Source of the DNA: a virus
Taxonomy: Duplodnaviria > Caudoviricetes
Virus record (IMG/VR): IMGVR_UViG_3300035157_000272
Coordinates: 1-25,561 of that record
Direction: 5' to 3' (one strand)
Length of the DNA stretch: 25,561 nucleotides
Shown here: positions 2,043 through 25,124 of the stretch, piece after piece
Position numbering within the stretch: the stretch's first letter is position 1
Layout of the letters: each line of letters begins with the position of its first letter
The notes under the pieces: model-generated
Database searches by the model: none
Seen by the model: only the letters and a program-made list of their open reading frames with translations
Told to the model about the DNA's origin: nothing
Position numbers and translations under genes: made by a program

Positions 2043-3498
2043 GAAGAATGAAGTTTATTTAAAAGTTGAAGCGGAGCCTCATCTCCATAAGGAGGCAGCA
2101 GAATTTTTTACCTTTGAAATCCCCTCTGCAAAATACATGCAAAGAACGAGGAGATACAAAGGTTGGGACGGTAAGGTACGGTTATACTCACCTGCTACTG
2201 GAGAGATTTATTGCGGTTTAGTAGATTATCTAACTGACTGGGCAAAGGAAAGGGGATATCATTATCAGTTCGAGGAATCTCAATACTTTGGGCATCCCAA
2301 GGATCAGAATGATCTAATAACTCCTGAGTCTGTAGTTGGATTTGTTCAAGCACTGGGTCTTCCTTCTGGATTGAAGGTTCGGGACTACCAATACGCAGCA
2401 ATATACGAGTGCCTACGATACAACAGAGCACTCCTATTGTCGCCAACTGCAAGCGGGAAAAGCCTAATGATTTATTCATTGGTTCGGTTTCATGTAAATG
2501 TTAAACGGAAAATTTTAATCGTTGTTCCTACCACCTCTTTGGTGGAGCAGATGTATAAAGACTTTGAAGAATATGGTTGGATGGCATCCAAACACTGCCA
2601 CAAAATATACTCTGGGGAGGAAAAAAATTCTGAAGCTGATTGCGTAATTACCACTTGGCAATCTGTTTATAAGCAACCTCGTAAGTGGTTTTCTAGGTTT
2701 GACGTAGTGATCGGTGACGAGGCTCACCTTTTCAAAGCCAAATCTCTTACTACGATTATGCATAAGTTGCATGGTTGTAAATATCGCTATGGATTTACTG
2801 GCACATTAGATGGTGCAAATGTTAATCAACTAGTGTTAGAAGGTGTATTTGGTAGGTGTTCCAAAGTTACTAAGACACACGAGCTAATGAAACAAGGACA
2901 TGTTGCTAAGTTAAAAGTTAAAGTAATTGTTCTTAAACATAAGGAAAAAATATTTGAAGGGTATCAAGATGAGATGTTTTATCTCATTGAGCATGAACCT
3001 AGGAATAAATTTATCCGCAATTTAGCGTGTGATCTTAAAGGTAATACACTAATCCTCTTTAACTATGTAGAGAAGCACGGAATCCCTTTATATGAAATGA
3101 TAAATAGTTACACTGACAGACCAGTGCATTTAGTTTATGGAGGCGTTGATACTGATGATCGTGAAGAAATTAGGAGACTAGTTGAACATGAAGACAACAG
3201 TATTATTGTCGCTAGCTACGGCACTTTCAGCACTGGTATTAATATCAAGCGGTTGCACAACTTGGTCTTCGCTAGTCCATCGAAATCTAGAGTGCGTAAC
3301 CTCCAGTCTATCGGGAGGGTACTTCGACAGTCTAAGGATAAGGTGAAGGCAACTTTATATGATATTGCTGATGATATTTCTACAGATAAGGGTAATAACT
3401 ACACTCTTAATCATCTGATGGAAAGACTCAAAATCTATAATGAAGAACAATTTAATTATGAAATCATAGAAGTAAAAGTAAAATCACATGACACTTAA
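2023..3498 (+). CDS. uvsW: UvsW SF2 DNA helicase
   Basis: RDYQ, SPTASGKS, DEAH, TGT, QSIGRVLR motifs. Confidence 0.95.
   Translation: MDLLIRKKNEVYLKVEAEPHLHKEAAEFFTFEIPSAKYMQRTRRYKGWDGKVRLYSPATGEIYCGLVDYLTDWAKERGYHYQFEESQYFGHPKDQNDLITPESVVGFVQALGLPSGLKVRDYQYAAIYECLRYNRALLLSPTASGKSLMIYSLVRFHVNVKRKILIVVPTTSLVEQMYKDFEEYGWMASKHCHKIYSGEEKNSEADCVITTWQSVYKQPRKWFSRFDVVIGDEAHLFKAKSLTTIMHKLHGCKYRYGFTGTLDGANVNQLVLEGVFGRCSKVTKTHELMKQGHVAKLKVKVIVLKHKEKIFEGYQDEMFYLIEHEPRNKFIRNLACDLKGNTLILFNYVEKHGIPLYEMINSYTDRPVHLVYGGVDTDDREEIRRLVEHEDNSIIVASYGTFSTGINIKRLHNLVFASPSKSRVRNLQSIGRVLRQSKDKVKATLYDIADDISTDKGNNYTLNHLMERLKIYNEEQFNYEIIEVKVKSHDT
2195..2479 (-). CDS. putative antisense-nested single-TM protein (94 aa) inside uvsW
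   Basis: N-terminal hydrophobic segment LATIGVLCCIVGTRILL then acidic/Pro tail; rare codons (CGG, GGG, TCG, CCC) in the overlapped uvsW stretch. Confidence 0.35.
   Translation of the reverse strand: MNKSLGFSRLQLATIGVLCCIVGTRILLRIGSPEPSIQKEDPVLEQIQLQTQELLDHSDPWDAQSIEIPRTDNDIPFPLPSQLDNLLNRNKSLQ
3099..3106 (+). promoter_or_regulatory. internal late promoter GATAAATA within uvsW
   Basis: NATAAATA consensus about 80 nt upstream of nested ORF 3188. Confidence 0.5.
3188..3346 (+). CDS. putative nested lipoprotein (52 aa), +1 frame of uvsW (not in ORF track)
   Basis: MKTTVLLSLATALSALVLISSG/CTTWSSLVHRNLECVTSSLSGGYFDSLRIR; SD AGGAG 3172-3176; upstream late promoter; local codon shift. Confidence 0.6.
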   Translation: MKTTVLLSLATALSALVLISSGCTTWSSLVHRNLECVTSSLSGGYFDSLRIR

Positions 3499-3937
3499 CT
3501 ACGCAAAACATGATGAAGAATTTTATGGACTTTTTAAGCTAGTTAGTGGAGAAGAGCTCATTGCTAAGGCAATAATTTCTAAACAAGAAGATCTTGAACC
3601 AGTTGAAGAATTGATCTTTTTAAGTAATCCTGTAACAGTTGAATTTTTTACTAAAGAGTTAGACGGAGGTAAAATTGCTAAAGGAATGGGGTTATCAAAT
3701 TGGATGCAAATGAGCGACGAGGATTTTTTTATTATTAAAGAGAAAGATCTTATATCATTAGCATCATTGTCCAAACAATATATTATCATGTATGAAGCAT
3801 ATTTGGCTGGTACTCCACCTGAACAATTATCACAAAAGCAAAGAATTAATCTAGAAAAAAGTATGGGTTATCTAGGATCTATTAATGAAGCTAGAATGTT
3901 ATTTGAAAAAATATATAATAACCCTTCCCAACCCTGA
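3488..3937 (+). CDS. conserved hypothetical protein upstream of g55 (possibly Sm-like fold)
   Basis: KLVSGEELIA N-terminal motif, MGYLGSI near C-terminus; coupled to uvsW. Confidence 0.8.
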   Translation: MTLNYAKHDEEFYGLFKLVSGEELIAKAIISKQEDLEPVEELIFLSNPVTVEFFTKELDGGKIAKGMGLSNWMQMSDEDFFIIKEKDLISLASLSKQYIIMYEAYLAGTPPEQLSQKQRINLEKSMGYLGSINEARMLFEKIYNNPSQP

Positions 3938-3945
3938 CAGTGTTG

Positions 3946-3974
3946 AGTCTACATCGAATGTCCATTGTTGTCAA
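3946..3974 (-). promoter_or_regulatory. antisense sigma70-type promoter TTGACA-N17-TAGACT
   Basis: minus strand -35 at 3974-3969 and -10 at 3951-3946. Confidence 0.55.
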
Positions 3975-3996
3975 GTCCCATTATATGTGTTATAAT
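3968..3996 (+). promoter_or_regulatory. sigma70-type promoter for g55, TTGTCA-N17-TATAAT
   Basis: -35 at 3968-3973, TG-extended -10 at 3991-3996. Confidence 0.75.
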
Positions 3997-4022
3997 ATTC
4001 ACATGCAGGTAAACCAATAGTT

Positions 4023-4496
4023 ATGAGAAAAAATGCTAAAACAAAAAAGCAACATTATGTGAACAATGCAGACTTTCTTGCTGCTCTTATTAAGTATAGA
4101 GAAGATGTAGAAATTGCAGAGAAGCAAGGTAAACCTAAACCTATAGTTAATAATTATATTGGGAGTTGTTTTTTAAAGATAGCAACACACTTATCTTACC
4201 GACCAAACTTTATCAATTACATGTATAAAGATGATATGGTTTGCGATGGTATAGAGAACTGTATACAGTATATTGATAATTTTGATCCTGCTAAAAGTAA
4301 AAACCCATTTGCATATTTTACTCAGATAGTGTATTATGCATTCCTACGTCGTATTGCTAAGGAGAAACGACAGATGGATATTAAGGAAAAGATTCTTGAG
4401 AAGTCAGGATACGATGAAGTGTTCTCGGTTGACGGAGATGGTGGAGCAGAGTATAATCAGATCAAAGCACGTATTGCAATCAATACTAAGAGATGA
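4023..4496 (+). CDS. g55: gp55 late-transcription sigma factor
   Basis: HYVNN, RPNFINY, DGIENC, NPFAYFTQI, AFLRRI. Confidence 0.95.
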   Translation: MRKNAKTKKQHYVNNADFLAALIKYREDVEIAEKQGKPKPIVNNYIGSCFLKIATHLSYRPNFINYMYKDDMVCDGIENCIQYIDNFDPAKSKNPFAYFTQIVYYAFLRRIAKEKRQMDIKEKILEKSGYDEVFSVDGDGGAEYNQIKARIAINTKR

Positions 4497-5155
4497 TTCC
4501 AACAATCATATATGATGATTTTTTTGAATATCCTGATCAGATAGTAGAGTATGCAAATACTCTAGACTATGACTTTGGACAATCAAATTATCCAGGTACA
4601 AGATCTAAATTGTTGTCTGAAATTAATCCAGATCTTTATTTTGCAGTATGTAGTAAACTTTTAAAAATATTTTATCCAACAATAGATCCTGAATCTATAA
4701 TTGAAGCAGAGATATCATTTCAAAAAATTAAACCATTACATACAGAAAAATATCATAATAAGAATAGGGGTTGGATCCACAGAGATACGGATGCAGAATT
4801 TGGTGGGATTGTTTATCTTAATAAAAATCCTGAACCAGATACAGGTACTTCAGTATATGAGTCTATAGATATTAACAATTTATATTATAATAAGTATCAA
4901 GATAGTATTAAAGAAAGATTTTATAGGGGTGAAGATATATCTGATGAAGAATATAATACAGGTTTTATTTCAACAGAAGATCGTTGGAAAGAAACTATTA
5001 AAGTAGATAACAAATATAATAGAATGTTTATGTTTCCAAATACCAAATGGCATGGGGTTAAAACTTATGGATCTGGTGAGAATGAAAGATTGACTTTGGT
5101 ATTTTTTATTACTATGTGTAATATTAAAAATGTATACAAACCTGTAAATAGATAA
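4493..5155 (+). CDS. 2OG-Fe(II) oxygenase-like protein (DUF6445-like)
   Basis: YPGTRS, GWIHRD, GIVYLN, GTSVY, NKYNR, WHG, RLTLVFF; very AT-rich insert between g55 and g47. Confidence 0.75.
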   Translation: MIPTIIYDDFFEYPDQIVEYANTLDYDFGQSNYPGTRSKLLSEINPDLYFAVCSKLLKIFYPTIDPESIIEAEISFQKIKPLHTEKYHNKNRGWIHRDTDAEFGGIVYLNKNPEPDTGTSVYESIDINNLYYNKYQDSIKERFYRGEDISDEEYNTGFISTEDRWKETIKVDNKYNRMFMFPNTKWHGVKTYGSGENERLTLVFFITMCNIKNVYKPVNR

Positions 5156-6186
5156 TGAAAGTTCTTTTAATTACTGACCAACACTTTGGTGTTAGGAATG
5201 ACAATCAACATTTCATTAATCACTATAGAAAATACTATAGTAAGGTTGTTATACCTTTTATTAAAGCATATGGTATCACAGAAATAATAGATCTTGGTGA
5301 TACATTTGACAAACGTAAATCAGTTAACTTTATGTCTTTAGAGGCAGCGAAGGAAATGTGGTTTGATCCTATTAAAGACATAGGATGTAAGATGACTGCT
5401 TTGGTTGGTAATCATGATATCTATTATAAGAATACATTGAGAATCAATGCACCAAATGAACTACTAGGAGATTATGATATAGATGTCATTGATGAACCTA
5501 CTACCCGTAACTATGACGGTACTGACATATTATTTCTGCCTTGGATATGTGATGAGAACAGAGATGATACCTTCAGAAGCATCACGAAAAGTACTGCTCC
5601 TGTCTGTATGGGCCATCTCGAGCTTAACGGTTTTGAAGCTCATCCAGGTCATGTCATGAACATGGGTATGGATATTAATCCTTTTGATAAATTTCAAAGA
5701 GTCTTTAGTGGACACTATCATATGAAATCTACTAAAGGTAATATCTCATATCTAGGAAATCCATATCAACTATATTGGAATGACTATGGATGTAAACGTG
5801 GATTCCATGTGTTTGATACAGAAACTTTAAAGACTACTTTTTATAGAAATCCATATAATATGTTCTATAAACTGTATTACGATAATGGTGTTAGAAATGA
5901 AATTCATCCTTCTGACTTAGAAGGTACTTTTGTAAAATTAATTGTAGAAGATAAGGGTGATCAAACAAAATTTGATTATGCTGTAAGACAATTGCAAAGT
6001 TGGGGTCTTGCAGATTTAAAAATTATTGAGGATCTTTCTGTTGAGATGGAAGACTCACTTGTGCTGGAAACCGAAGATACCATCACGCTTTTAGATAAAT
6101 ATATAGATGAGATAGATCTCCCAGTTGACTCTGAAAATGTTAAGAGTATAATGAGATCACTCTATGTTGAGGCATGTGAACTATAA
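5155..6186 (+). CDS. g47: gp47 recombination nuclease (Mre11/SbcD-like)
   Basis: TDQHFG, LGDTFD, GNHD, GHLE, SGHYH metallophosphoesterase motifs. Confidence 0.95.
   Translation: MKVLLITDQHFGVRNDNQHFINHYRKYYSKVVIPFIKAYGITEIIDLGDTFDKRKSVNFMSLEAAKEMWFDPIKDIGCKMTALVGNHDIYYKNTLRINAPNELLGDYDIDVIDEPTTRNYDGTDILFLPWICDENRDDTFRSITKSTAPVCMGHLELNGFEAHPGHVMNMGMDINPFDKFQRVFSGHYHMKSTKGNISYLGNPYQLYWNDYGCKRGFHVFDTETLKTTFYRNPYNMFYKLYYDNGVRNEIHPSDLEGTFVKLIVEDKGDQTKFDYAVRQLQSWGLADLKIIEDLSVEMEDSLVLETEDTITLLDKYIDEIDLPVDSENVKSIMRSLYVEACEL
5483..5659 (+). CDS. putative nested 2-TM membrane protein (58 aa), +1 frame of g47 (not in ORF track)
   Basis: MSLMNLLPVTMTVLTYYFCLGYVMRTEMIPSEASRKVLLLSVWAISSLTVLKLIQVMS; AGGAG at 5466-5470; local codon shift. 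Confidence 0.45.
   Translation: MSLMNLLPVTMTVLTYYFCLGYVMRTEMIPSEASRKVLLLSVWAISSLTVLKLIQVMS
6094..6101 (+). promoter_or_regulatory. possible late promoter GATAAATA
   Basis: consensus match about 85 nt upstream of ORF 6186. Confidence 0.4.
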
Positions 6187-6434
6187 TGTATATTCTTACA
6201 GATAAAAATACAGGTGGTGTATATGCAGTGTATAATAAAGATAAGATAAAAACTGTACAGATTTTTGAAATTCAAGATGATGCTGAAAGATATACAATGT
6301 TATTAGAAGCTCAAGGATCTAAAAAGTTAGATGTTTTAAAAGTTAATCTAGATGATGTAGCTTTGAATTGTGGGAATTATGGATATTTTTATAATGTAAT
6401 TACTAGCGATGATTTTGTCGTACCTCCTACATGA
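6186..6434 (+). CDS. conserved hypothetical protein between g47 and g46
   Basis: overlapping stop/start at both ends; FE-QDDAERY---LEA motif. Confidence 0.8.
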   Translation: MYILTDKNTGGVYAVYNKDKIKTVQIFEIQDDAERYTMLLEAQGSKKLDVLKVNLDDVALNCGNYGYFYNVITSDDFVVPPT

Positions 6435-8149
6435 TTTTATTTGATACGATTCGTTGGAAGAATTTTCTTTCAGCAGGTGACCAGTGGATTGAAATTAAAT
6501 TAGATGAGAGTATGTCAACTCTCATTATAGGATCGAATGGTGCTGGTAAGTCTACCATTCTCGATGCTTTATGCTTTGCATTATTCAATAGACCATTCCG
6601 TAGAGTTAAAAAATCTCAACTCATTAATAGTATTAATGAGAAAGGAACAAAAGTTGAAGTGTGTTTTTCTATAGGAAGTGATGACTATAGAGTGTTTCGA
6701 TCAATGAAACCAAACACATTTGAAGTGTATAAAAATAATAAAATGGTTGACCAAGATGCTGCTGTAAAAGATACGCAGAAATATTTGGAGCAATCAGTAT
6801 TGAAACTCAATTTCAAAAGTTTTACTCAAGTTGTTATATTAGGCAGTAGTACGTTTGTGCCCTTTATGCAACTAGCTGCACCTCATCGTAGAGAAGTTAT
6901 TGAAGATCTTTTAGATATTGGTATATTCTCTTCTATGAATACCTTACTTAAGGATAAGGTTAGATCAGCAATGAGTCAAAGTAAAGATTGCGATCATTTA
7001 CTTAGGTTATCTGAAGAAAAGGTAAGTGCTCAGAAAACATTAATACAGTCTTTAGAGGCAGTAAATGAAACACGTAGGGAAGAAAAGGTTTTAAAAATAG
7101 CAGAGAATGAAGAAAAGATATTTAATCTTACTGGTGGTCTTGCTGAGATGAAGACACAGGTTGAATTATTGGAGTCTGAATATACTGGATCTGATGCTCC
7201 TAAAAAGATCTTACAGGATTTACGTCAACAACAAGCAGATAATAAATCTGCGATAAAAATTACTGCTGCTGAAATAAAGTTTTTTAGTGAAAATAATGTA
7301 TGTCCTACGTGTCATCAATCTATTGATGAAGAATTTAAAACTAATAAGCTTGCTGAGTCACATAAAGAAGGTAAAAAATATGAGAGGAAGTTAAAGAAAC
7401 TTGAGAAAACTGTTAAAGAAACTATTAGTATTATTGATAAGTTAGATGATGTATCTTCTAAGTTATATGAGTCTCGTAGTGAAGCATCTCAAATGGAAAA
7501 AGAGATCATTCGTATAGAGAAAGATAATATACAGTTGACAAAAGAGATGAGTGATATTGTAGATCATCAATCTATTACACACATTGAGGATGAATTAATT
7601 GAGTTGGAAAATGAATACAAGAAAGTTGAAACTGATTGTTCTTCTATCAATAAAACATTAGATGAGTATAAAGTTGTTTCTACTTTATTAAAGGATGGTG
7701 GAATCAAGAGTCAAATTATTAAGAAGTATGTACCTGTTATTAATAAGTTGATTAATAAGTATCTACAGAGTATGGATTTCTATATTAACTTCACACTTGA
7801 TGAGGAGTTTAATGAAATAATTAAGAGTAGATTTAGAGATGAGTTTTCTTATGCATCATTTTCTGAGGGTGAGAAGCAGAAGATAGACTTAGCACTTCTC
7901 TTTACATGGAGAGAGATTGCACGTATGAAAAATTCTGTTGCAACAAATCTTCTTATACTTGATGAGGTATTTGATAGTTCCTTGGATGATCAAGCAACTG
8001 GTGAGTTGTTAAAAATTCTTAGAAGTCTTGGTGTCGGAACAAATGTATTTGTAATATCCCATAAAGGTGATATACTGGTGGACAAATTCCTCAAGACTAT
8101 TAAGTTTGAAAAACAAAATGATTTTTCTAAGATGTCTGAAGAATCATAA
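6431..8149 (+). CDS. g46: gp46 recombination ATPase (Rad50/SbcC-like)
   Basis: GSNGAGKS, zinc hook CPTC, FSEGE signature, LLILDE, ISH. Confidence 0.95.
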   Translation: MILFDTIRWKNFLSAGDQWIEIKLDESMSTLIIGSNGAGKSTILDALCFALFNRPFRRVKKSQLINSINEKGTKVEVCFSIGSDDYRVFRSMKPNTFEVYKNNKMVDQDAAVKDTQKYLEQSVLKLNFKSFTQVVILGSSTFVPFMQLAAPHRREVIEDLLDIGIFSSMNTLLKDKVRSAMSQSKDCDHLLRLSEEKVSAQKTLIQSLEAVNETRREEKVLKIAENEEKIFNLTGGLAEMKTQVELLESEYTGSDAPKKILQDLRQQQADNKSAIKITAAEIKFFSENNVCPTCHQSIDEEFKTNKLAESHKEGKKYERKLKKLEKTVKETISIIDKLDDVSSKLYESRSEASQMEKEIIRIEKDNIQLTKEMSDIVDHQSITHIEDELIELENEYKKVETDCSSINKTLDEYKVVSTLLKDGGIKSQIIKKYVPVINKLINKYLQSMDFYINFTLDEEFNEIIKSRFRDEFSYASFSEGEKQKIDLALLFTWREIARMKNSVATNLLILDEVFDSSLDDQATGELLKILRSLGVGTNVFVISHKGDILVDKFLKTIKFEKQNDFSKMSEES

Positions 8150-8152
8150 ATA
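8145..8152 (+). promoter_or_regulatory. late promoter CATAAATA
   Basis: overlaps the g46 stop, 17 nt before the next ORF. Confidence 0.55.
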
Positions 8153-8169
8153 AGTTTGTTAAATTTTAA

Positions 8170-8415
8170 ATGCTGATGAATAACGCTGTATTATATTCTA
8201 ACGAGAGTCAAGAATGTGAACGTATGGCTTCTCTATTAAGTTCAATAGACAGTAATTATCAAAAGTATGTTTTAGGAAGAGATTTTAGTGATAAACAATT
8301 CCATAATGAATTTGGGAGTGAGGCAACTTATCCTCAGATTACTTTAGATGGTAAACATATTGGTAATATCAAGGAAACTCTAAGACACATGAACAAAGTC
8401 GGATTGATTAAATGA
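8170..8415 (+). CDS. glutaredoxin-like protein with a single Cys
   Basis: ATYPQITLDGKHIG glutaredoxin motif; SQEC in place of CXXC. Confidence 0.75.
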   Translation: MLMNNAVLYSNESQECERMASLLSSIDSNYQKYVLGRDFSDKQFHNEFGSEATYPQITLDGKHIGNIKETLRHMNKVGLIK

Positions 8416-8624
8416 AAGCATGGAGGATATGGAAGTATGCGTTGGGTAGCTTTTCTGACGAAAAAACTAAACCCTACGACAACTACGTTGTTTTGGTACG
8501 TTCTGTTATTTTCGTATCTTATCTCGTCACTAACTGTTTTATTGTTGCAGGGGTTATAAGGCATTGGGACAGTAACAAAACTGTCCACCAAGTTGCACAT
8601 GCATCTTCAAACCTGTTATACTAG
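8412..8624 (+). CDS. small membrane protein
   Basis: WRIWKYALGSFSD, hydrophobic segment VVLVRSVIFVSYLVTNCFIVAGVI; ATGA-coupled. Confidence 0.75.
   Translation: MKAWRIWKYALGSFSDEKTKPYDNYVVLVRSVIFVSYLVTNCFIVAGVIRHWDSNKTVHQVAHASSNLLY
8567..8622 (+). promoter_or_regulatory. early-type promoter: inverted repeat plus sigma70 boxes
   Basis: GGACAG-N8-CTGTCC(AC), TTGCAC 8593-8598, TGT-TATACT 8614-8622. Confidence 0.75.
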
Positions 8625-8644
8625 GTGTATCAAAGACGAGGATT

Positions 8645-11472: not shown

Positions 11473-11623
11473 ATGGTCAGCATACATATTATTGCAATCA
11501 AACAGACTTACTAAAGTAGAGTTTGTTTGTGAATCTAATTTGAGAGAAGATGCTATACAAAGATGCAAGGCATTATATGGTGTGAGTGATGTAAGGCAAC
11601 TGACTAGGGTGTGGACACATTAG
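11450..11623 (+). CDS. 57-aa hypothetical protein (not in ORF track)
   Basis: MNQMQNTKWSAYILLQSNRLTKVEFVCESNLREDAIQRCKALYGVSDVRQLTRVWTH fills the pcyA-cobS gap; alternative start 11459. Confidence 0.75.
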   Translation: MNQMQNTKWSAYILLQSNRLTKVEFVCESNLREDAIQRCKALYGVSDVRQLTRVWTH

Positions 11624-11668
11624 AAAGTGACCACACATGGTTGATTCATGGCTTGAGCGTGTTATAAT
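11611..11668 (+). promoter_or_regulatory. early-type promoter: inverted repeat plus sigma70 boxes
   Basis: GTGGACAC-N8-GTGACCAC, TTGATT 11641-11646, TGT-TATAAT 11660-11668. Confidence 0.75.
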
Positions 11669-11691
11669 TAATCTATAAACAAAAGAGATCT

Positions 11692-12786
11692 ATGACCTTT
11701 CAAGCAAAATTTACAGACGATGCCCTAATCTCCTTCTTTGATACTGGAGATATTACTAGTGACCAAGTAACAAGTTTTGCTGAGAGTGTTGGTGTTAAGA
11801 CTCAAAGCGTTACAAAGAGAATGAATAAGTTGCCACAGTTTTCTAAGGTTGGTCGTGGTAAGTGGAATCTTAGTATTGTAGAAGCTAAAGAAGTTCAAGA
11901 GCAAGTCACTAGACAAGTGAGGAAAGCAATTGAAAATCTTGCACCAGCAAAGGATCCTAATTATGTTCCTTTTGGTAACTTCTCTGATGTTAAGAAAGTT
12001 ATTCAGTCAAAGTTATTCTATCCCACATTCATTACTGGACTCTCTGGTAATGGTAAGACTCTATCAGTAGAGCAAGCATGTGCTCAGTTGGGTAGAGAAC
12101 TTATTCGTGTAAACATTACAATCGAAACAGATGAAGACGATCTTATTGGCGGTTTCCGTCTTGTTGATGGCAACACCGTATGGCACAATGGCCCAGTCAT
12201 CGAAGCACTCAGACGAGGTGCTATCTTGCTCCTTGACGAAATCGACCTTGCCTCTAATAAAATTCTCTGTCTCCAATCCATTCTTGAAGGAAAAGGAGTC
12301 TTCCTTAAAAAAATCGGAGAATACGTCCAACCAAAAGACGGATTCAACATCATCGCAACTGCTAACACTAAAGGTAAAGGATCCGAAGACGGACGATTTA
12401 TTGGAACTAATGTGCTCAACGAAGCCTTCTTAGAAAGATTCCCTGTAACCTTTGAGCAGAATTATCCTACTCCAGTTGTTGAGACTAAGATCTTACTTAA
12501 TGCTGGATGCGAGCAAGAGTTTGCTGATAACCTAATCAAGTGGGCAGGTGTTATTCGTAAGACATTCTATGATGGTGGTGTTGATGAAGTTATAACCACT
12601 CGTAGATTAGTTCATATCGTGCAAGCTAAAGAGATCTTTGGTGATCGTCTTAAAGCAATTACTAATTGTATTGCTAGGTTTGATGATGACACTAAGGAAT
12701 CTTTCCTAGACCTTTATACAAAGGTTGACGCAGGAGAAGAAACAGAGTATACTGAGGAGGACAAACAAGATAATAATGAAGTATAG
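11692..12786 (+). CDS. cobS: CobS / MoxR-like AAA+ ATPase
   Basis: GLSGNGKT, DEDDLIG, LLLDEID, ATANTKG, AFLERF, ITTRRL. Confidence 0.9.
   Translation: MTFQAKFTDDALISFFDTGDITSDQVTSFAESVGVKTQSVTKRMNKLPQFSKVGRGKWNLSIVEAKEVQEQVTRQVRKAIENLAPAKDPNYVPFGNFSDVKKVIQSKLFYPTFITGLSGNGKTLSVEQACAQLGRELIRVNITIETDEDDLIGGFRLVDGNTVWHNGPVIEALRRGAILLLDEIDLASNKILCLQSILEGKGVFLKKIGEYVQPKDGFNIIATANTKGKGSEDGRFIGTNVLNEAFLERFPVTFEQNYPTPVVETKILLNAGCEQEFADNLIKWAGVIRKTFYDGGVDEVITTRRLVHIVQAKEIFGDRLKAITNCIARFDDDTKESFLDLYTKVDAGEETEYTEEDKQDNNEV
12131..12433 (+). CDS. putative nested secreted protein (100 aa), +1 frame of cobS
   Basis: signal peptide MKTILLAVSVLLMATPYGTMA, S/T/K-rich body, two Cys; strong local codon shift in cobS. 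Confidence 0.55.
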   Translation: MKTILLAVSVLLMATPYGTMAQSSKHSDEVLSCSLTKSTLPLIKFSVSNPFLKEKESSLKKSENTSNQKTDSTSSQLLTLKVKDPKTDDLLELMCSTKPS

Positions 12787-13087
12787 TGAAAATGAAATCC
12801 TGAAGGAGGTATCTGATTATATCAGTGCCACCTATCAGGGTCACTACAGCACTGGTGGGGTGCAAACATTAGATCTCATTGATTCTGTTGGAGATGCTGA
12901 AGCATTCTGTAGGAGTAATATCCTTAAGTATGCTTCTAGGTATGATAGAAAGGGTACAGCAAGAAGGGATATCATTAAGATCATCCACTATGCAATTCTC
13001 CTATGCCACTTCAACGATAAACGGGCTAAATCACAAGATCTAGCAGCAAACAACACTACATCATTCGCAGTTGATTACGACAAATGA
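12776..13087 (+). CDS. DUF3310-like protein (putative nucleotide kinase)
   Basis: TYQGHY, FCRSNILKYASRYDRKG, DIIKIIHY; start moved to ATG 12776. Confidence 0.7.
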   Translation: MKYSENEILKEVSDYISATYQGHYSTGGVQTLDLIDSVGDAEAFCRSNILKYASRYDRKGTARRDIIKIIHYAILLCHFNDKRAKSQDLAANNTTSFAVDYDK

Positions 13088-13746
13088 CAGTAATTTCTAA
13101 AGAGACCATTGATCTATTACAAAACTTTTCGACTATTAATAAGTCAATTGTTATTAAACCTGGTAATCAGATTGAAACACTTAGTTTAAATAAGAACATT
13201 CTTGCCAAAGCAAAGGTGCAAGAAACTTTTGATCGTGATATGGCGATCTATGATTTACCATCTTTGATATCACTCTTTAATCTATTTGATGGCAGTCCAC
13301 AAATTGATACTGATACAAGCAGTCATTTGTTAATCAGTAATCAGAATAGTAGATCTAAGGTAAAATTCTTCTATTCAGATCCAGACATTATTGTTCAACC
13401 ACCTGATAAAGAAGTTGATCTTCCTTCTGAAGATGTATCCTTTAGGTTAGAAGCACCAGTGCTTCAGCAGATTCGTAAGGCATGGTCTATCTGTGGTGTG
13501 CCAGATCTATGTTTGACTGGTAATGGTCAGGAGATGGAGTTGTGCTTGACTGATAAGAAGAATGATACATCCAATACATACTCGGTTGTGGTTGGTGAAA
13601 CTGATGAGGAGTTTTGTTTCTGTTTTAAGATGGAGAACTTAAAACTATATCCTCAAGGTTATGATGTAACTATTAGCAAAGCTAATGTTGCTCGCTTTGA
13701 AGCAGACAATGTTAAGTATCTTATTGCTTTAGAACCTAATGCCTAA
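13084..13746 (+). CDS. g45: gp45 sliding clamp
   Basis: ISKETIDLLQNFSTINKSI, AIYDL, YLIALE. Confidence 0.93.
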   Translation: MTVISKETIDLLQNFSTINKSIVIKPGNQIETLSLNKNILAKAKVQETFDRDMAIYDLPSLISLFNLFDGSPQIDTDTSSHLLISNQNSRSKVKFFYSDPDIIVQPPDKEVDLPSEDVSFRLEAPVLQQIRKAWSICGVPDLCLTGNGQEMELCLTDKKNDTSNTYSVVVGETDEEFCFCFKMENLKLYPQGYDVTISKANVARFEADNVKYLIALEPNA

Positions 13747-14683
13747 TGATTTTCTATGGGTCGAGAAGTATCGACCTCAGACTATTGAGGATTGTATTCT
13801 CCCTATAGATATAAAGGAGACCTTCAAAAGTTTCATAGAGCAAGGTGAGATACCAAATCTCTTGCTCTCTGGTACTGCTGGAGTTGGTAAAACTACCATT
13901 GCGAAAGCATTGTGTAATGAATTGGGAGCAGATTTTTATGTCATTAACGGATCCGATGAAGGTAGGTTTCTCGATACTGTCAGGAATCAAGCGAAAAACT
14001 TCGCAGCCACTGTATCCCTTACTGCAACATCTAGACACAAAGTCCTTATCATTGATGAGGCAGACAACACCACCCCCGATGTACAGCTCTTACTTAGAGC
14101 CTCTATTGAGGAATTCCAAAAAAACTGCAGGTTTATATTTACGTGCAACTTTAAAAACAAAATCATAGAGCCACTACATAGTAGAACTACTGTAATTGAT
14201 TTCAATGTCAGAGGAAAAACTAAGCAAACTCTTGCAGGTCAGTTCTTTGAAAGGTGTAGAGACATCCTTACCAGAGAGAAAGTACGGTTCAATGACAAAG
14301 TGGTTGCCACAGTTATACAAAAGTACTTCCCAGATTTCAGAAGAACACTCAATGAGCTCCAAAGATATAGTTCAACAGGCTCTATTGATACTGGAATCCT
14401 CGCAGCTTTAGGTGATGCTAAGATAGATTCTCTTACTGGATATCTAAAGCATAAAAAGTTTAATGATGTTAAGAAATGGGTAACACAAAATCTAGATAGT
14501 GATCCCACTTCTATAATGAGGAAGTTGTATGATACTCTTTCTTCTATGATGGAAGGACCAAGTGTTGCAGCAGCAGTTTTAATTATTGCTGAATACCAAT
14601 ATAAGTCTGCGTTTGTAGTAGATCAAGAGATAAATCTATTAGCATGTCTTACGCAAATTATGTTGGAGTGTGAATTCAAATGA
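13739..14683 (+). CDS. g44: gp44 clamp loader large subunit
   Basis: LWVEKYRP, GTAGVGKT, IIDEAD, PLHSR, FPDFRR. Confidence 0.95.
   Translation: MPNDFLWVEKYRPQTIEDCILPIDIKETFKSFIEQGEIPNLLLSGTAGVGKTTIAKALCNELGADFYVINGSDEGRFLDTVRNQAKNFAATVSLTATSRHKVLIIDEADNTTPDVQLLLRASIEEFQKNCRFIFTCNFKNKIIEPLHSRTTVIDFNVRGKTKQTLAGQFFERCRDILTREKVRFNDKVVATVIQKYFPDFRRTLNELQRYSSTGSIDTGILAALGDAKIDSLTGYLKHKKFNDVKKWVTQNLDSDPTSIMRKLYDTLSSMMEGPSVAAAVLIIAEYQYKSAFVVDQEINLLACLTQIMLECEFK
13917..14168 (+). CDS. putative nested ORF (83 aa), +1 frame of g44
   Basis: first ATG of track ORF 13845..14168; C-ending codon enrichment in g44. Confidence 0.3.
   Translation: MNWEQIFMSLTDPMKVGFSILSGIKRKTSQPLYPLLQHLDTKSLSLMRQTTPPPMYSSYLEPLLRNSKKTAGLYLRATLKTKS
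14205..14411 (+). CDS. putative nested ORF (68 aa), +1 frame of g44
   Basis: MSEEKLSKLLQ...DIVQQALLILESSQL; the codon anomaly in g44 ends at its stop. Confidence 0.35.
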   Translation: MSEEKLSKLLQVSSLKGVETSLPERKYGSMTKWLPQLYKSTSQISEEHSMSSKDIVQQALLILESSQL

Positions 14684-14859
14684 GAACACAGAATAAGGAA
14701 AACTATTATTATATGTTTTGGGTGGTTGCAATGGTAGCATTTATTGTACCTCAAGTATACACCGCAATAGCATATAATAAACTTGCTAATATTCTTAATG
14801 AACCTCTAGAGGTTGAGATTAAGGATATGCCACCATATAGAGTGGAGTATTATAAATGA
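14680..14859 (+). CDS. 59-aa single-TM protein (not in ORF track)
   Basis: MRTQNKENYYYMFWVVAMVAFIVPQVYTAIAYNKLANILNEPLEVEIKDMPPYRVEYYK; ATGA overlaps at both ends. Confidence 0.85.
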   Translation: MRTQNKENYYYMFWVVAMVAFIVPQVYTAIAYNKLANILNEPLEVEIKDMPPYRVEYYK

Positions 14860-15179
14860 GATTCAAAGCACTTGTCCATGTCAGATTAAGAGGATCTGTA
14901 TCTGATGCTGCTGGTAATGCAGTGATGAAAAATGTGCATCTGACTTCCCCTAAACTTCAACCACATTTGTTGAGGATTGGTAAGTGTATTGATTTTTGGT
15001 TTGATGCAGAAACTGAGGAGATAGCAAGAGAGCAGATGGATCTTCTATCTGATAGAATGCTTTCTAATACTGTGATAGAAGATTGGGAGTATACCTTAGA
15101 AGAAACTGAGGAGACTGGAATAGGAAATATATCAAATGATAATGCAGGTACATCCAAACATCACTTATTTGACGCATGA
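14856..15179 (+). CDS. purS: FGAM synthase subunit PurS
   Basis: VHVRLRGSVSDAAG, LRIGK, MLSNTVIEDW. Confidence 0.85.
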   Translation: MRFKALVHVRLRGSVSDAAGNAVMKNVHLTSPKLQPHLLRIGKCIDFWFDAETEEIAREQMDLLSDRMLSNTVIEDWEYTLEETEETGIGNISNDNAGTSKHHLFDA

Positions 15180-15442
15180 CAAAGAAACATAATTACAAGA
15201 ACCCTTCTAAGGCACAAGATCTCTCACACTTAGAGGCACAAGTTACTGAAGGTAAGAAGTATTATGATGAGCAAGGGTGGGAGATTTCCCCACCCATAAG
15301 TGATAGAGAATGTATCTATCGTTGTTTGGAGAATTGTATCAGTCTTGCTGGACTTGATAAGAAACAAGTCATGAGATTAGCAGAAGAGTTTAAGACTAAG
15401 AAAACTGAATTTGTAAGAAATGAAGAGTATCCTGTATTATGA
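15176..15442 (+). CDS. hypothetical protein
   Basis: ATGA-coupled at both ends. Confidence 0.8.
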   Translation: MTKKHNYKNPSKAQDLSHLEAQVTEGKKYYDEQGWEISPPISDRECIYRCLENCISLAGLDKKQVMRLAEEFKTKKTEFVRNEEYPVL

Positions 15443-15975
15443 TTCGAGTATTAAAAAATCCTATTACTCAGAACTATATTGATTTTAAAGAATTAATATC
15501 ACGTGATAATTTTTTATGGGGTCATGCAAAAGAAAATTATTCTACAGGATCCCATCCAGCATATTTTACGCATCCATTTATATTGAGATCATTTGCTAAT
15601 GAGATAGCACCAGTTCCTAAGATTATGTGTGAGCATACAAATTTTGCTTGGAATGTAGTAAGAGAAATATTTGAATATAATAATATACAGGTAAACCTTA
15701 TCTATAGGATGAATTTAAATATGACTTATGCACAGGATTTAGATAATCAATTTAGTCCTGTGCATACTGATCATGTATATCCTCATGAGAATTTGTTAAT
15801 TTATTTTACAGGACATAATGAAGGAGAAGGTGGTCAGGTTATAGTTAATGATGAAGAATATTATCCTAAAGAGGATGATGTTATAACATTTCCTGGTACT
15901 CCACATTATATGAAGATACCTGAAAACGGATTTAGAACAGCATTAGTAGTTACCTATCTTGCAGGATATAAATGA
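15439..15975 (+). CDS. 2OG-Fe(II) oxygenase-like protein
   Basis: RMNLN, HTDH, NLLIYF, PHY, FRTALVVT. Confidence 0.7.
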   Translation: MIRVLKNPITQNYIDFKELISRDNFLWGHAKENYSTGSHPAYFTHPFILRSFANEIAPVPKIMCEHTNFAWNVVREIFEYNNIQVNLIYRMNLNMTYAQDLDNQFSPVHTDHVYPHENLLIYFTGHNEGEGGQVIVNDEEYYPKEDDVITFPGTPHYMKIPENGFRTALVVTYLAGYK

Positions 15976-17540
15976 GAATCTTAGGACAGACAAGTCATCA
16001 TGATGCATCTATATGTTTATTGGAGGATGGTAATGTTCTTAGATTTTATAAAGAAGAAAGATTGAATGGTATTAAAAGAGATTCTCCTTGTATATTAGGT
16101 CTCTATAAGATCTATGAGGAGTTTGGTAATACTATAGATTATATTGTTGGGGAAGCTGATGATTTATCTGTACCAGCAATTTGTAAAAGATTGTTTCCTT
16201 CTGCAGAGGTAATAGATGTAAAAAACCTTCATCACTTGTGCCATGCTAGTTTAGCATTTTATAGTAGTGGGTTTAAAGAAGCTTTGACTGTAGTTATTGA
16301 TAGAAATGGATCTACTACAAATGAAGGTACTGAGAGTGAGACTGTTTTTTGTTGTAGATATCCAAATACATTCACTACAGTGTATCAAAATTTATCAAAT
16401 CAAATTGATGGGAAGTATAATATCACTGGGGTTTATGAATCAGCAACTGCTTTAATAGATCAGCATCCATTAGAGAGTGGTAAGACTATGGGGTTGGCAT
16501 CATATGGTAGAAATAAACTTGCTCCATCTTTATTTGAAGATGGCATTCCTATAAAAGAAAAATTTACTACAGTGCATAAAGATTATATGTGGGGTAGTAT
16601 TCCAGGTAAACATCATACTGTAGTTAATAAAGAACTGCACTCAAGAACAACAAGTGATTTGAATGAAGATAATTATCACATATATGCAGATTATGCTTAT
16701 CAAGTTCAATCAGAAACTCAGCAAGCTGTTGGTGATATTATTGAAAAGTTTGAACATTTGGATATAAAAAACGTTTGTATTACTGGTGGGTATGGATTGA
16801 ATGTAGTTGCTAATCAATACTTGACAGAAAGATTTCCTTGGTATAATTTTTTCTTTGAACCTCTTGCTGATGATACAGGCAATTCTATAGGTGCTGCTTT
16901 ATATTTACATCATGAATTAACTAAATCTGAAGATCCATTTGATTTTAAAAATACCATGTTTCATGGTAAGGAATATCCTATACCAAAAGAATATAAAACA
17001 TGTGAGTTAGATTTTATTGTAGATAGTTTACGCAATGATAAATCAGTTGCAGTCTTTCATAAACAGGCAGAAGCAGGACCAAGAGCATTGGGTAATAGAT
17101 CTATTTTGTTCAATCCTTGGAATCCTGATGCTAAGGAGATTGTTAATAAGATTAAGAAGAGAGAATGGTATAGACCTTTCGCAGCAATGGTTTTAGATTA
17201 TGAAGCACCATACTTATTCAATATGGGTATGCATGAAATTAATGATATCAATTGTAAATATATGACAAGAAGTGTTACTGTTAGAGATCCATTTCTTTAT
17301 GGTATAACTCATATTGATCAAACGTGTCGGATTCAAACTATAGATCATAAGCATCATTTATATCGTTTGCTTCGTAGTATAAGTAGTCATACAGGTTATG
17401 GTGTTTTATTAAATACTAGTTTTAATTTAGCTGGTAAACCGTTGGTTGAAACACTTGCGGATGCAGAGAAAACATTCTATAATAGTGACCTAGATATTCT
17501 CTGGTTTCCAGAGACTAAACAATTTATTTCTAAAGATTAA
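15972..17540 (+). CDS. NodU/CmcH-family O-carbamoyltransferase
   Basis: HHDAS, KEERL, HHLCHA, GKTMGLASYG, DDTGNSIG, EAGPRALGNRS, KKREWYRPFA, LNTSFN. Confidence 0.92.
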   Translation: MRILGQTSHHDASICLLEDGNVLRFYKEERLNGIKRDSPCILGLYKIYEEFGNTIDYIVGEADDLSVPAICKRLFPSAEVIDVKNLHHLCHASLAFYSSGFKEALTVVIDRNGSTTNEGTESETVFCCRYPNTFTTVYQNLSNQIDGKYNITGVYESATALIDQHPLESGKTMGLASYGRNKLAPSLFEDGIPIKEKFTTVHKDYMWGSIPGKHHTVVNKELHSRTTSDLNEDNYHIYADYAYQVQSETQQAVGDIIEKFEHLDIKNVCITGGYGLNVVANQYLTERFPWYNFFFEPLADDTGNSIGAALYLHHELTKSEDPFDFKNTMFHGKEYPIPKEYKTCELDFIVDSLRNDKSVAVFHKQAEAGPRALGNRSILFNPWNPDAKEIVNKIKKREWYRPFAAMVLDYEAPYLFNMGMHEINDINCKYMTRSVTVRDPFLYGITHIDQTCRIQTIDHKHHLYRLLRSISSHTGYGVLLNTSFNLAGKPLVETLADAEKTFYNSDLDILWFPETKQFISKD

Positions 17541-17541
17541 A

Positions 17542-17844
17542 ATGGCTGTAAAAAACATACGTTTCACTAGTGGTGAAAATGTTATCTGTGAGTTGAATGA
17601 AGAGAAGGAGGATAGTATTGTAATTGCAGATGCGATTATTGCTATGCCAGCAGGTGAAGATGGCACTCAAATAGGATTTGCTCCTTGGGCTCCATTGCAA
17701 GATCCTGATATTCATGAACTTGAAATCAACAAAAGAAATGTAATGTATATTACAGAAGCTGTGCCAAATCTAGTAACACAGTATAATACTATGTTTAATA
17801 AACCATCTATCGTTACTCCAAATACAGGTAAGTTAATTCTATGA
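17542..17844 (+). CDS. conserved hypothetical protein (possibly Sm-like fold)
   Basis: RFTSGENVI, IGFAPWAP, C-terminal IVTP...KLIL. Confidence 0.8.
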   Translation: MAVKNIRFTSGENVICELNEEKEDSIVIADAIIAMPAGEDGTQIGFAPWAPLQDPDIHELEINKRNVMYITEAVPNLVTQYNTMFNKPSIVTPNTGKLIL

Positions 17845-18368
17845 GACTAGGTGTTATGTGCTCTGGTAAGGGTACCAACTTCGAGAACATTCTACGCACT
17901 TGTAATAAGCATGAAGTTGTGTTGATGATACACAACAAAAAAGATTGTGGTGCTGTAAAGGTAGCAGAAAAATTTGGTGTCCCACATTGTTACATACCAC
18001 ACAAAGATGAAGAGAGGATGATTGATCTCTTAAAGGTATGGCGTGTGCAACTTGTTGTGCTTGCAGGATACATGAGAATTTTATCACCTAATTTCATCAA
18101 CTCATTCCCAGAAAGAATTATTAATGTGCATCCATCTCTACTTCCCAAGTATAAAGGCATTGATGCTGTAGAGCAAGCATTGGAAAGTGGAGATGATGTT
18201 ACAGGATGTACTGTCCATATAGTGACAGAAGAGTTAGATTCTGGTAGAATACTCCTACAGGGAAAAGTCCCTATTGAAAAAGATGATACGGTAAAAACTT
18301 TAACCAAACGTATTCAACGTTCTGAGTATGGTATTTTACCAGCAGCAATCAACAACTTTACATTATGA
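17841..18368 (+). CDS. purN: phosphoribosylglycinamide formyltransferase
   Basis: SGKGTN, LAGYMRIL, NVHPSLLP, GCTVH, LDSG. Confidence 0.95.
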   Translation: MRLGVMCSGKGTNFENILRTCNKHEVVLMIHNKKDCGAVKVAEKFGVPHCYIPHKDEERMIDLLKVWRVQLVVLAGYMRILSPNFINSFPERIINVHPSLLPKYKGIDAVEQALESGDDVTGCTVHIVTEELDSGRILLQGKVPIEKDDTVKTLTKRIQRSEYGILPAAINNFTL

Positions 18369-19189
18369 AATCTTTGAAAACTCCTCTTCGATATCCAGGA
18401 GGTAAATCACGTGCTATTACAAAGATGGCACAGTTCTTACCAGACATGAGTAAGTATAAGGAGTATCGTGAACCTTTTCTTGGAGGTGGATCTGTTGCTT
18501 TGTATATGACAAAGACCTTTCCTCATTTAGAAATATGGGTTAATGATCTTTATGAACCGCTAGTTAACTTCTGGCAACAATTACAAGATGATGGAGATGA
18601 AATTGCGAAAGACTTACGTGCCCTCAAAGAGAGACATGATTCCACAGATAGAGCCAGATACCTTTTTCTGGAATGCAAAGAAAATCTTGACAAGGAGACT
18701 ACGCCCAGAGATCGTGCTGTCTATTTTTATGTTATCAACAAGTGCAGCTTTAGTGGTCTTACTGAGTCCTCGTCATTCAGTGCCCAAGCATCACAATCCA
18801 ACTTTTCAATTAGAGGAATCGATAAGTTACCTGGCTATCAAGAGTTAATAGAAGATTGGACTATAACTAATCTAACTTATGAAAGGATGTTGAGTGATGA
18901 GAAGGATACATTTATATACTTAGATCCACCATATGAGATAGGAACTAATTTATATGGTAAGAAGGGTGAGATGCATAAGTATTTTGATCATGATGCATTC
19001 TCTAAAGAATGTGATGGATTTACTAGTCATCAGATGATATCATATAATAGTGATCAAGTTGTAAAGGATCGTTTTAAGAATTGGAATGCGTATGAATATG
19101 AGCACACGTATACTATGAGATCAGTTGGTGATTATATGAAGGATCAGCAAGGAAGAAAAGAATTGGTATTAACCAACTATGGCATATGA
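18365..19189 (+). CDS. dam: Dam/D12-class N6-adenine DNA methyltransferase
   Basis: LRYPGGKS, EPFLGGGSV, VND, YLDPPY, ELVLTNY. Confidence 0.92.
   Translation: MKSLKTPLRYPGGKSRAITKMAQFLPDMSKYKEYREPFLGGGSVALYMTKTFPHLEIWVNDLYEPLVNFWQQLQDDGDEIAKDLRALKERHDSTDRARYLFLECKENLDKETTPRDRAVYFYVINKCSFSGLTESSSFSAQASQSNFSIRGIDKLPGYQELIEDWTITNLTYERMLSDEKDTFIYLDPPYEIGTNLYGKKGEMHKYFDHDAFSKECDGFTSHQMISYNSDQVVKDRFKNWNAYEYEHTYTMRSVGDYMKDQQGRKELVLTNYGI
18588..18848 (+). CDS. putative nested single-TM protein (86 aa), +1 frame of dam
   Basis: basic KKILTRRLRP then IVLSIFMLSTSAALVVLL; local codon shift. Confidence 0.45.
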   Translation: MMEMKLRKTYVPSKRDMIPQIEPDTFFWNAKKILTRRLRPEIVLSIFMLSTSAALVVLLSPRHSVPKHHNPTFQLEESISYLAIKS

Positions 19190-20495: not shown

Positions 20496-20499
20496 AGTC

Positions 20500-24683: not shown

Positions 24684-25124
24684 ATGACTAACCTTACACG
24701 TTACAGTAGTGCAGATATTCCAGCACTAATGGAAAAGATTACAAAAAATAGTATCGGACTCGATAACTATTTTGATGACTTCTTCAAAATCCAAACACCA
24801 TCCAACTATCCACCTTACAATTTAGTTCAGTTAAATAACCATGAATCAAGATTGGAGGTAGCACTTGCAGGGTTTAAGAAGGATGAAGTTAAAGTCTATA
24901 CAGAGTTTGGAAAACTACATGTCGAAGGCATCAAAGAAGAAAAGGAAGCAGATGGAGAGTATCAGCACAGGGGCTTGGCACAACGTTCATTCAAACGCAC
25001 TTGGACACTCAGCGAAGATTGCGAAGTTCGACAGGTCGCATTTGAAGATGGACTCCTCACCGTGGAGTTAGGAAAAGTTGTTCCTGAGAAACATGCTCGT
25101 AAGGATTACTTGACAGGAGATTAA
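24684..25124 (+). CDS. hsp20: small heat shock protein Hsp20 (IbpA-like)
   Basis: NYPPYNL, LEVALAGF, HRGLAQRSF, DGLL; SD AAGGAGG. Confidence 0.95.
   Translation: MTNLTRYSSADIPALMEKITKNSIGLDNYFDDFFKIQTPSNYPPYNLVQLNNHESRLEVALAGFKKDEVKVYTEFGKLHVEGIKEEKEADGEYQHRGLAQRSFKRTWTLSEDCEVRQVAFEDGLLTVELGKVVPEKHARKDYLTGD

Follow-up and report, generated by a model that had tools for sequence, protein, structure and literature searches.

Second reading frames in a replication gene block

The 25,561-nucleotide (nt) stretch analyzed here (the window), positions 1 to 25,561 of IMG/VR virus record IMGVR_UViG_3300035157_000272, carries the g3-uvsY-uvsW-g55-g47-g46-cobS-g45-g44-dam-g62-regA-hsp20-pstS block of a T4-like cyanophage. 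Among cultured records, Prochlorococcus phage P-SSM7 lies nearest, with 83% nt identity over uvsW, and the cultured relatives of the window phage have genomes of 177-252 kb. Second open reading frames (ORFs) lie wholly inside uvsW, g47, cobS, g44, dam or hsp20, host genes that also occur in relatives without the nested frame (Table 1). An earlier sequence-only reading had proposed that bounded patches of C-ending codons in the first five of these genes mark overprinted genes, mostly for envelope proteins; beyond its list, we found a +1 frame in hsp20 and a second antisense frame in uvsW. From comparison with relatives, we consider it probable that the patches are selected second frames encoding small accessory proteins that arose by overprinting, about half of them acting at the host envelope, and that they do not form an essential lysis machine.

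Table 1. Host genes, nested ORFs and promoter motif in the window (aa, amino acids; TM, transmembrane segment)
Feature	Position	Strand	Description
uvsW helicase	2023..3498	+	PHROG 16 DNA helicase, E 9e-128; host of three nested frames
First antisense nested ORF in uvsW	2195..2479	-	94 aa; one predicted TM (about 10-28) between a basic N-terminus and an acidic tail rich in Pro and Gln
Second antisense nested ORF in uvsW	2515..2772	-	85 aa; 35 nt upstream of first antisense ORF, in tandem
T4-type late promoter motif GATAAATA inside uvsW	3099..3106	+	82 nt before lipoprotein ATG
Nested +1 ORF in uvsW, predicted lipoprotein	3188..3346	+	52 aa; SSG-C23; mature chain 30 aa
g47 recombination nuclease subunit	5155..6186	+	PHROG 100, E 1e-133; host gene
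Nested +1 ORF in g47	5483..5659	+	58 aa; two hydrophobic stretches
cobS MoxR-type ATPase	11692..12786	+	PHROG 249, E 3e-137; host gene
Nested +1 ORF in cobS	12131..12433	+	100 aa; signal-peptide-like N-terminus, Cys33, Cys95
g44 clamp-loader subunit	13739..14683	+	PHROG 168, E 2e-139; host of two nested frames
Nested +1 ORF g44a	13938..14168	+	76 aa from ATG; 107 aa from GTG 13845
Nested +1 ORF g44b	14205..14411	+	68 aa; hydrophilic, Ser/Thr-rich
dam DNA adenine methylase	18365..19189	+	PHROG 56, E 4e-95; host gene
Nested +1 ORF in dam	18588..18848	+	86 aa (83 aa from the conserved start at 18597); one predicted TM between a basic N-terminal stretch of 35 aa and a short tail
Nested +1 ORF in hsp20	24883..25071	+	62 aa; basic, hydrophilic; outside the span of the sequence-only reading

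C-ending codons and the predicted second products

Recounting confirmed the hand counts of C-ending codons on which the proposal rested in all five patches. Such codons make up 37/101 of the cobS patch compared to 32/264 in the rest of the gene (Fisher p 4e-7), 21/87 compared to 11/188 in dam (p 3e-5), 15/59 compared to 28/285 in g47 (p 0.002), 46/189 compared to 8/126 in g44 (p 3e-5) and 16/53 compared to 63/439 for uvsW 3188-3346 (p 0.005). All of the +1 ORFs assigned to these patches lie where they were placed, but the g44 patch holds two ORFs rather than one, and the antisense ORF 2479-2195, which had been listed along with the nested products, is not rich in C-ending codons (15/95 versus 64/397). 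Read in the +1 frame, each C-ending codon of a patch contributes to a codon for Ser, Thr, Pro or Ala, because position 3 of the host codon is position 2 of the nested codon. The C-rich patches are the trace of predicted second products rich in Ser, Thr and Pro. Across overlapping 40-codon windows, the +1 frame is open in 29/62 of those rich in C-ending codons and in 21/511 of the others, so this richness is not always the sign of a nested frame.

Within the single genome, we compared each stop-free run with synonymous recoding under the codon usage of the window, in 62 gene-frame tests. The cobS, g44, dam and antisense ORFs are longer than recoding gives (p 0.0005-0.006), with cobS reaching only p 0.07 under within-gene permutation. 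The g47 and lipoprotein ORFs are not longer than recoding gives (p 0.28 and 0.60), and the case for both therefore rests on relatives.

Nested frames stay open and constrained across relatives

Relatives comprised 373 IMG/VR loci from five scans, with host genes mapped codon by codon. Matches covering <60% or containing stops were dropped, duplicates were removed and representatives were taken at <88% nt identity. Frames were scored as open against a null that permuted synonymous codons within each gene and against a stricter null that permuted them inside the region only, so that local bias was kept; expected counts are given here in that order. At ≥85% identity, g44a is open in 23/23 sequences (0.7; 1.3) and g44b in 22/23 (0.7; 3.8), whereas six control regions are open in 0/58, 0/4, 0/96, 0/55, 0/51 and 2/68. 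The dam frame is open in 40/47 at ≥60% identity (1.7; 10.0), the hsp20 frame in 8/8 at ≥70% (0.7; 2.1), the lipoprotein frame in 10/13 at ≥79% (0.5; 6.0) and the g47 frame in 5/5 (0.2; 0.4) and 28/42 (5.5; 15.4). The core of the first antisense frame is open in 22/23 gap-free sequences (0.9; 7.8) and in 47/82 cluster representatives, with 1.9 expected. The second antisense frame is open in 27/40 sequences of the 72-79.5% group (1.2 expected), 5/11 at ≥79.5% (0.5) and 1/31 at <66% (1.5), and the cobS frame is intact in 14/70 representatives compared to 2.4 expected (0.6-6.2 across nulls, the region-only null giving 6.2).

Where it can best be tested, in g44a and the first antisense frame, the depletion of codons is specific to those that would make a stop in the nested frame. 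In g44a, NTA is never followed by a purine (0 versus 42.6 expected) and is followed by a pyrimidine 28 times versus 10.1; NTG before A occurs 0 times versus 15.8 and NTG otherwise 22 times versus 9.7. In the first antisense frame, NTT before A is absent (49.2 expected) and NCT before A occurs 3 times (45.0), whereas in other contexts NTT (109 versus 111.2) and NCT (129 versus 138.3) run close to expectation.

Synonymous-site constraint, which the sequence-only reading had named as a check, was borne out in disjoint sequence pairs at 75-93% identity, where the synonymous difference (pS) inside four nested frames is 30-50% below that outside. It is 0.148 versus 0.286 outside for g44a (lower in 35/40 pairs, p 1e-8), 0.160 versus 0.286 for g44b (37/40, p 6e-10), 0.124 versus 0.213 for the dam frame (34/40, p 4e-7) and 0.185 versus 0.273 for the g47 frame (32/40, p 1e-4). 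For the second antisense frame it is 0.215 versus 0.279 (33/47, p 5e-4). The same codons show no significant synonymous drop in distant phages (10/15, 7/15 and 4/10 pairs). We also computed NN/NS, the ratio of nested-changing to nested-silent substitutions among host-changing first-position substitutions, on a tree tour that counts branches twice. This ratio is 0.15 inside g44a versus 0.59 outside, 0.24 versus 0.80 for g47, and for dam 0.37 versus 0.97 in the ≥68.5% group and 1.38 versus 1.37 in the 60-68.5% group; it is not lowered for g44b (0.84 versus 0.61) or for the lipoprotein.

Evidence for selection is strongest for g44a, g44b, dam, g47, the cobS carriers and both antisense frames, and weakest for the lipoprotein in the pair tests. 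We regard g44a, g44b, the dam and cobS frames and the antisense pair as very likely to be real genes; for the g47 frame and the lipoprotein the same status appears likely. Several observations weigh against this assessment. Identity cut-offs and region edges were fixed after the data had been viewed, and the representatives share ancestry and are not fully independent, so that the open-frame counts are not formal probabilities. Under region-only permutation the margins of the lipoprotein and cobS frames become modest. NTA is also depleted in non-stop contexts in dam (1 versus 9.7) and in the lipoprotein frame (5 versus 14.1), and in cobS, taken over all sequences, codon depletion is general, not stop-specific. 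Synonymous change is not suppressed in the lipoprotein frame (5/11 pairs) or the first antisense frame (24/44 pairs). The host protein leaves little freedom at most sense-strand ATGs, no Shine-Dalgarno (SD)-like site was found at the cobS, g44b or hsp20 frames, and AlphaFold models of the cobS product are of low confidence, with a predicted local distance difference test score (pLDDT) of 52.7 from 14 sequences and 45.2 for the mature part of a relative from 48 sequences. The matching RNA data, 16 listed runs that all consist of contigs with small shares, carry no information on strand, start or frame and are given no weight here.

uvsW holds a predicted lipoprotein and two antisense frames

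In a six-frame search, the 3188..3346 product was the only lipobox ORF besides PstS. The lipobox reads SSG-C in the window, LSG-C in P-SSM7 and LNG-C or LGG-C in other relatives; the predicted mature chain of relatives is Ser/Pro-rich. Synonymous recoding produces a lipobox with a probability of 4-7%, whereas G/S-C is present in 12/15 representatives that have the lipoprotein ATG, a set not selected for similarity. Among 39 lipoprotein-enriched sequences chosen by similarity, host-silent change is 0.06-0.07 inside the frame versus 0.10-0.11 in the flanks, and the codons that build the lipobox include a G-ending Arg in 39/39 and a G-ending Leu in 37/39. An SD-like site precedes the lipoprotein in 6/10 sequences versus 1.3 expected, and the 63 loci found with a lipoprotein profile are all nested inside uvsW.

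The late promoter motif upstream, GATAAATA, fits the late promoter consensus NATAAATA given in the accessible text of PMC2984593, and at 3099 it is kept in 47/50 representatives compared to 2.5 expected. It is also present in phages that lack the lipoprotein and therefore probably serves downstream genes, the lipoprotein having arisen behind it. Other ATAAATA motifs lie at 149, 6095 and 8146 of the window, and in relatives such motifs are conserved inside g46 (codon 442, 39/91) and g62 (codon 72, 27/48), where the window has none.

The ATG of the first antisense frame is kept in 49/51 sequences versus 7.1 expected, and its predicted TM exceeds the synonymous null (p 0.01); Syn9-type phages have a form of 51-53 aa. 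The second antisense frame is conserved in Syn9-type phages and broken in P-SSM7. In P-SSM7 (GU071103.1) the first antisense frame lies at 120601-120317 and the lipoprotein frame ends at 121471; in Syn9 (NC_008296.2) antisense frames lie at 122520-122263 and 122227-122066. No promoter was found for the pair: the minus strand of uvsW has no conserved ATAAATA, and a sigma-70 scan of 1900-3600 gave 4 sites versus 5.9 expected. Antisense transcription is mentioned for this phage family in the accessible part of PMC10976474. Of 130 uvsW sequences, 35 carry the lipoprotein, 25 of them with the long antisense form, two with a short form and eight with none. The last eight form a distant lineage (L130, L135, L138, L139, L507, L510, L519 and L521; uvsW identity 57-59%) that lies nearest to S-SM2/S-SKS1-type records.

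A patchily distributed frame in cobS

The cobS frame is carried at host identities of 64-100%. Both Cys33 and Cys95 occur in 14/14 carriers, compared to 24/56 and 12/56 non-carriers, and host-silent change in carriers is 0.067 inside the frame versus 0.122 outside, compared to 0.111 versus 0.104 in non-carriers. On a tree of the overlapped segment the carriers form one clade (1 change), whereas the flank tree requires 8 changes (shuffled mean 13); the cobS block therefore either moves by recombination or has been lost several times. Its product is predicted to be exported as a small domain that may be closed by a disulfide; the export signal was judged by eye, and hydrophobicity equals the synonymous null. 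Profile searches gave 28 and 26 matches, of which the nine inspected were all the nested frame or cobS frameshift chimeras; 1.84 billion representatives yielded no stand-alone homologue. Loci found with the cobS-product profile were nested inside cobS in 80/80 cases. Searches of the ESM Atlas with the cobS and antisense products gave best scores of 0.82, within the range of shuffled proteins, and Foldseek with the cobS-product models gave no match below E 2.9. A beta-rich fold is not claimed, because the models are low-confidence and unmatched. Just upstream of the main frame, cobS codons 88-137 (for example 3220-3369 of L295) hold an ATG-led +1 frame of 36-52 aa in 36/70 representatives; the window has no ATG at that codon.

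Frames in g47, g44, dam and hsp20

The g44a product is hydrophilic in the window and single-TM and basic in most relatives. In S-SM2 (L377) and in L050, L058, L069 and L078, g44a continues through the g44b region as one frame of 121-162 aa. The hsp20 frame is also open in P-SSM7 and P-SSM2. Codons 210-258 of g47 (about 5782-5930 of the window) hold a second +1 frame, open in 30/46 relatives versus 10.5 expected and closed in the window. Similarly, a +1 frame at g46 codons 109-155 (about 6755-6895 of the window; for example 6606-6764 of L369) is open in 54/61 relatives versus 1.6 expected, occurs in two versions, one strongly hydrophobic and one hydrophilic, with similar host amino acids beneath both, and is closed by 4 stops in the window. 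Two short ATG-led +1 frames of the window, 8437-8559 (plus strand, inside 8412-8624) and 20338-20763 (overlapping 20031-20495), exceed synonymous recoding in the single-genome test (p 0.004 and 0.02). Further candidate +1 frames lie in uvsY and h120.

About half of the products carry envelope signals

The description of the nested products as mostly envelope proteins held only in part. The lipobox, the antisense TM, the cobS cysteines and the dam TM of relatives exceed what the host protein forces, the dam product being more hydrophobic than the null in 3/4 relatives tested (p 0.03-0.06) and not in the window (p 0.23). In contrast, the g47, cobS and lipoprotein products are just as hydrophobic as the null, g44a of the window, g44b and hsp20 are hydrophilic, and the g44b and hsp20 products are less hydrophobic than the null. 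Because host codons are T-ending, +1 frames are hydrophobic by default: the synonymous null reaches a Kyte-Doolittle (KD) score of 1.6 in 54-80% of samples. Hydrophobicity was therefore rejected as evidence of a membrane function for the g47, cobS and lipoprotein products, in which it is no higher than the synonymous null. About half of the nested set appears to carry real envelope signals.

The further suggestion of a dispersed, essential holin, antiholin and spanin set did not hold up. No member is universal. Of nine frames scored, P-SSM7 has eight, Syn9 six, and P-SSM4, S-SM2 and P-SSM2 two each; the lipoprotein is absent from Syn9, P-SSM4, S-SM2 and P-SSM2, and the cobS frame is absent from P-SSM7 and present in S-SM2 and P-SSM4. 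None of the nine occurs in 12 of the 33 long loci, which were counted without merging by contig. No lysis family was matched: seven nested products searched against Pfam and PHROGs gave nothing usable (best phrog_3798, E 0.012; PF24428, E 0.083). Class II holins have two TM segments and a charged C-terminal tail; the g47 product has no charged tail, its hydrophobic stretches are no stronger than the null, and it matched no holin profile in PHROGs or Pfam. Outside the nested set, two tandem plus-strand genes at 21301-21591 and 21591-21881 encode coiled-coil proteins with a C-terminal TM and weak XhlA/haemolysin and holin profile matches, and are plausible ordinary holin candidates. Given patchy presence and ordinary holin candidates, an essential hidden lysis cassette is unlikely, and accessory roles fit better. 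T4 r genes are absent from cyanophages according to the accessible text of PMC2984593, which leaves room for substitutes; a term search of the accessible text of PMC3037559 found no mention of lysis genes.

Alternative explanations

The nested frames could nevertheless be the missing lysis genes, with the uvsW lipoprotein and antisense product as o- and i-spanin, the g47 product as holin and the cobS or dam product as antiholin. P-SSM7, P-SSM2, P-SSM4, Syn9 and S-SM2 are all listed as spanin-less in the accessible part of PMC6139136, in which all-frame searches cover only genomes <50 kb, and the uvsW of P-SSM7 hides both an LSGC lipoprotein and a 94-aa protein with an N-terminal TM. The long antisense form accompanies the lipoprotein in 25/27 carriers versus 8/57 non-carriers (≥70% group), although this co-occurrence comes mostly from one clade and the eight distant carriers have no antisense ORF. 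Like an o-spanin, the predicted lipoprotein has a lipobox (off consensus at -3 in the SSG-C of the window), a Ser/Pro-rich chain and a late promoter upstream; i-spanins are type II inner-membrane proteins with a periplasmic domain, and the antisense product has a predicted N-terminal TM above the null. Two-component spanin genes sit beside, across or within each other on one late transcript, but these two ORFs lie on opposite strands, 708 nt apart, with the late motif on the plus strand only. The periplasmic cysteines through which spanins form intermolecular disulfides are absent from 25/25 antisense tails, which are 14% Pro, and an extra Cys occurs in 6/25 lipoproteins. Taken with the patchy presence, the lack of family matches and the ordinary XhlA/holin-like genes, these features make the missing-lysis explanation unlikely.

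Three other accounts concern the frames themselves. If the frames were C-terminal extensions reached by +1 frameshifting or slippage, yielding truncated host fusions as in dnaX gamma/tau, the missing SD-like sites and host-forced ATGs at cobS, g44b and hsp20 would be understood, as would the joined g44a-g44b frame of some distant phages; but a signal peptide or lipobox functions only at an N-terminus, most frames are cut off from upstream sequence by a conserved stop shortly before their ATG, and antisense frames cannot arise in this way, so we hold this to be very unlikely. Local codon preference, RNA structure or selection against restriction words might instead lower A/G-ending codons with no second gene present. 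cobS does under-use NTA codons overall (310 versus 423 outside the frame), and region-only permutation raises the expected open counts toward those observed for the lipoprotein and cobS frames; the same null nonetheless leaves g44a, g44b and dam far above expectation, g44 and the antisense frame avoid all three stop types and not the same codons in non-stop contexts, and the lipobox and the antisense ATG are built from rare codons that have become fixed there. For g44, dam and the antisense frame this explanation is largely refuted, and overall we find it highly improbable. Finally, the patches might be tracts recombined from a donor phage rich in C-ending codons, with the open frames as passengers. 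The scatter of cobS carriers on the flank tree favors exchange, and the g44a, dam and lipoprotein patches of the window resemble those of clade-mates less (third-position identity 0.41, 0.46 and 0.48) than the flanks do (0.58-0.64). However, C-ending codons exceed the flanks in every clade representative (13/13, 5/5, 23/23, 23/23 and 21/21), GC-richer Synechococcus phages included, the tracts end at the starts and stops of the frames, and recombination accounts for the movement of alleles but not for open frames being retained along with fixed cysteines. As synonymous change is suppressed inside the tracts, donor recombination is insufficient, and we give it hardly any weight.

Relation to known systems and implications

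With the patches read as selected second frames, the sense frames would be translated from host-gene mRNA and the two antisense frames might be read from one antisense RNA. Expression of the lipoprotein would come late, driven by the promoter within uvsW, and the product would be lipidated and held in the envelope. Envelope-directed products would likely serve exclusion or lysis tuning, and the hydrophilic frames (g44a in the window, g44b and hsp20) likely an unrelated function. The late-promoter lipoprotein is a candidate o-spanin or exclusion protein; our best guess is that it acts late in the outer membrane, either by blocking re-adsorption or by helping to rupture that membrane.

As in lambda Rz1 within Rz and other two-component spanins, described in the accessible part of PMC6139136, the uvsW pair would combine a small, late, usually unannotated Pro/Ser-rich lipoprotein in the +1 frame with a predicted type II membrane protein nearby. 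Unlike Rz, the host gene of the lipoprotein is a helicase and not an i-spanin, the TM partner lies on the opposite strand, has a Pro-rich, Cys-less tail and is missing in 8 distant carriers, and there is no sequence match. In phiX174, genes E inside D and B inside A exemplify same-strand de novo overprinting by a small, often membrane, protein, and the cyanophage frames likewise overprint unrelated core genes; but phiX174 is a packaging-limited genome of about 5 kb, whereas here at least nine frames occupy six genes of a 25-kb stretch, on both strands and patchily. The T4 antiholin RI is a helical protein of about 100 aa with an export signal and a small periplasmic domain holding a cysteine pair. 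The cobS product has a similar outline in its length, putative export signal and cysteine pair, but is all-beta in a low-confidence model too poor for comparing folds, has cysteines 62 residues apart and no sequence match, and no T-like holin partner was identified for it. T5 Llp and Cor are small, dispensable, lineage-restricted lipoproteins that block receptors, encoded by stand-alone genes and, for T5 Llp, expressed early; the uvsW lipoprotein is also small and lineage-restricted, but is nested behind a late promoter and has no sequence match to them.

As the sequence-only reading had expected, annotation misses these frames: they are unannotated in 5/5 cultured genomes inspected and under the tblastn matches listed. 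None of 10 nested sequences was present in an exact look-up among 15 billion predicted proteins, and the other nested products have no stand-alone homologue in PHROGs, Pfam and, for three, phage tblastn. We found no report of these frames in the literature covered, which largely excludes subscription papers. Nested genes are textbook material in tiny phages and spanin pairs. Overprinting itself is known; the novelty lies in how densely it occurs in the core genes of a large T4-like phage, where it uses both strands and its alleles are exchangeable. Large T4-like phages would not be expected to carry nested genes at this density in their genes for helicase, nuclease, clamp loader, ATPase and methylase.

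A bolder extension, which we think unlikely, is that core replication genes hold an exchangeable second proteome on both strands and that P-SSM7-group uvsW hides the lipoprotein with an antisense inner-membrane partner as the missing outer-membrane lysis system; if so, the pair would be a spanin architecture not described before. The predicted lipoprotein falls in a virus group without a known outer-membrane lysis protein. The hosts of these phages are the most abundant marine phototrophs. Should the nested frames be translated, a bias would affect counts of genes as well as estimates of dN/dS and phylogenies that use these genes as markers. With the frames present in cultured models, outer-membrane breach and superinfection exclusion in phages without T4 r genes would become addressable through named candidate proteins.

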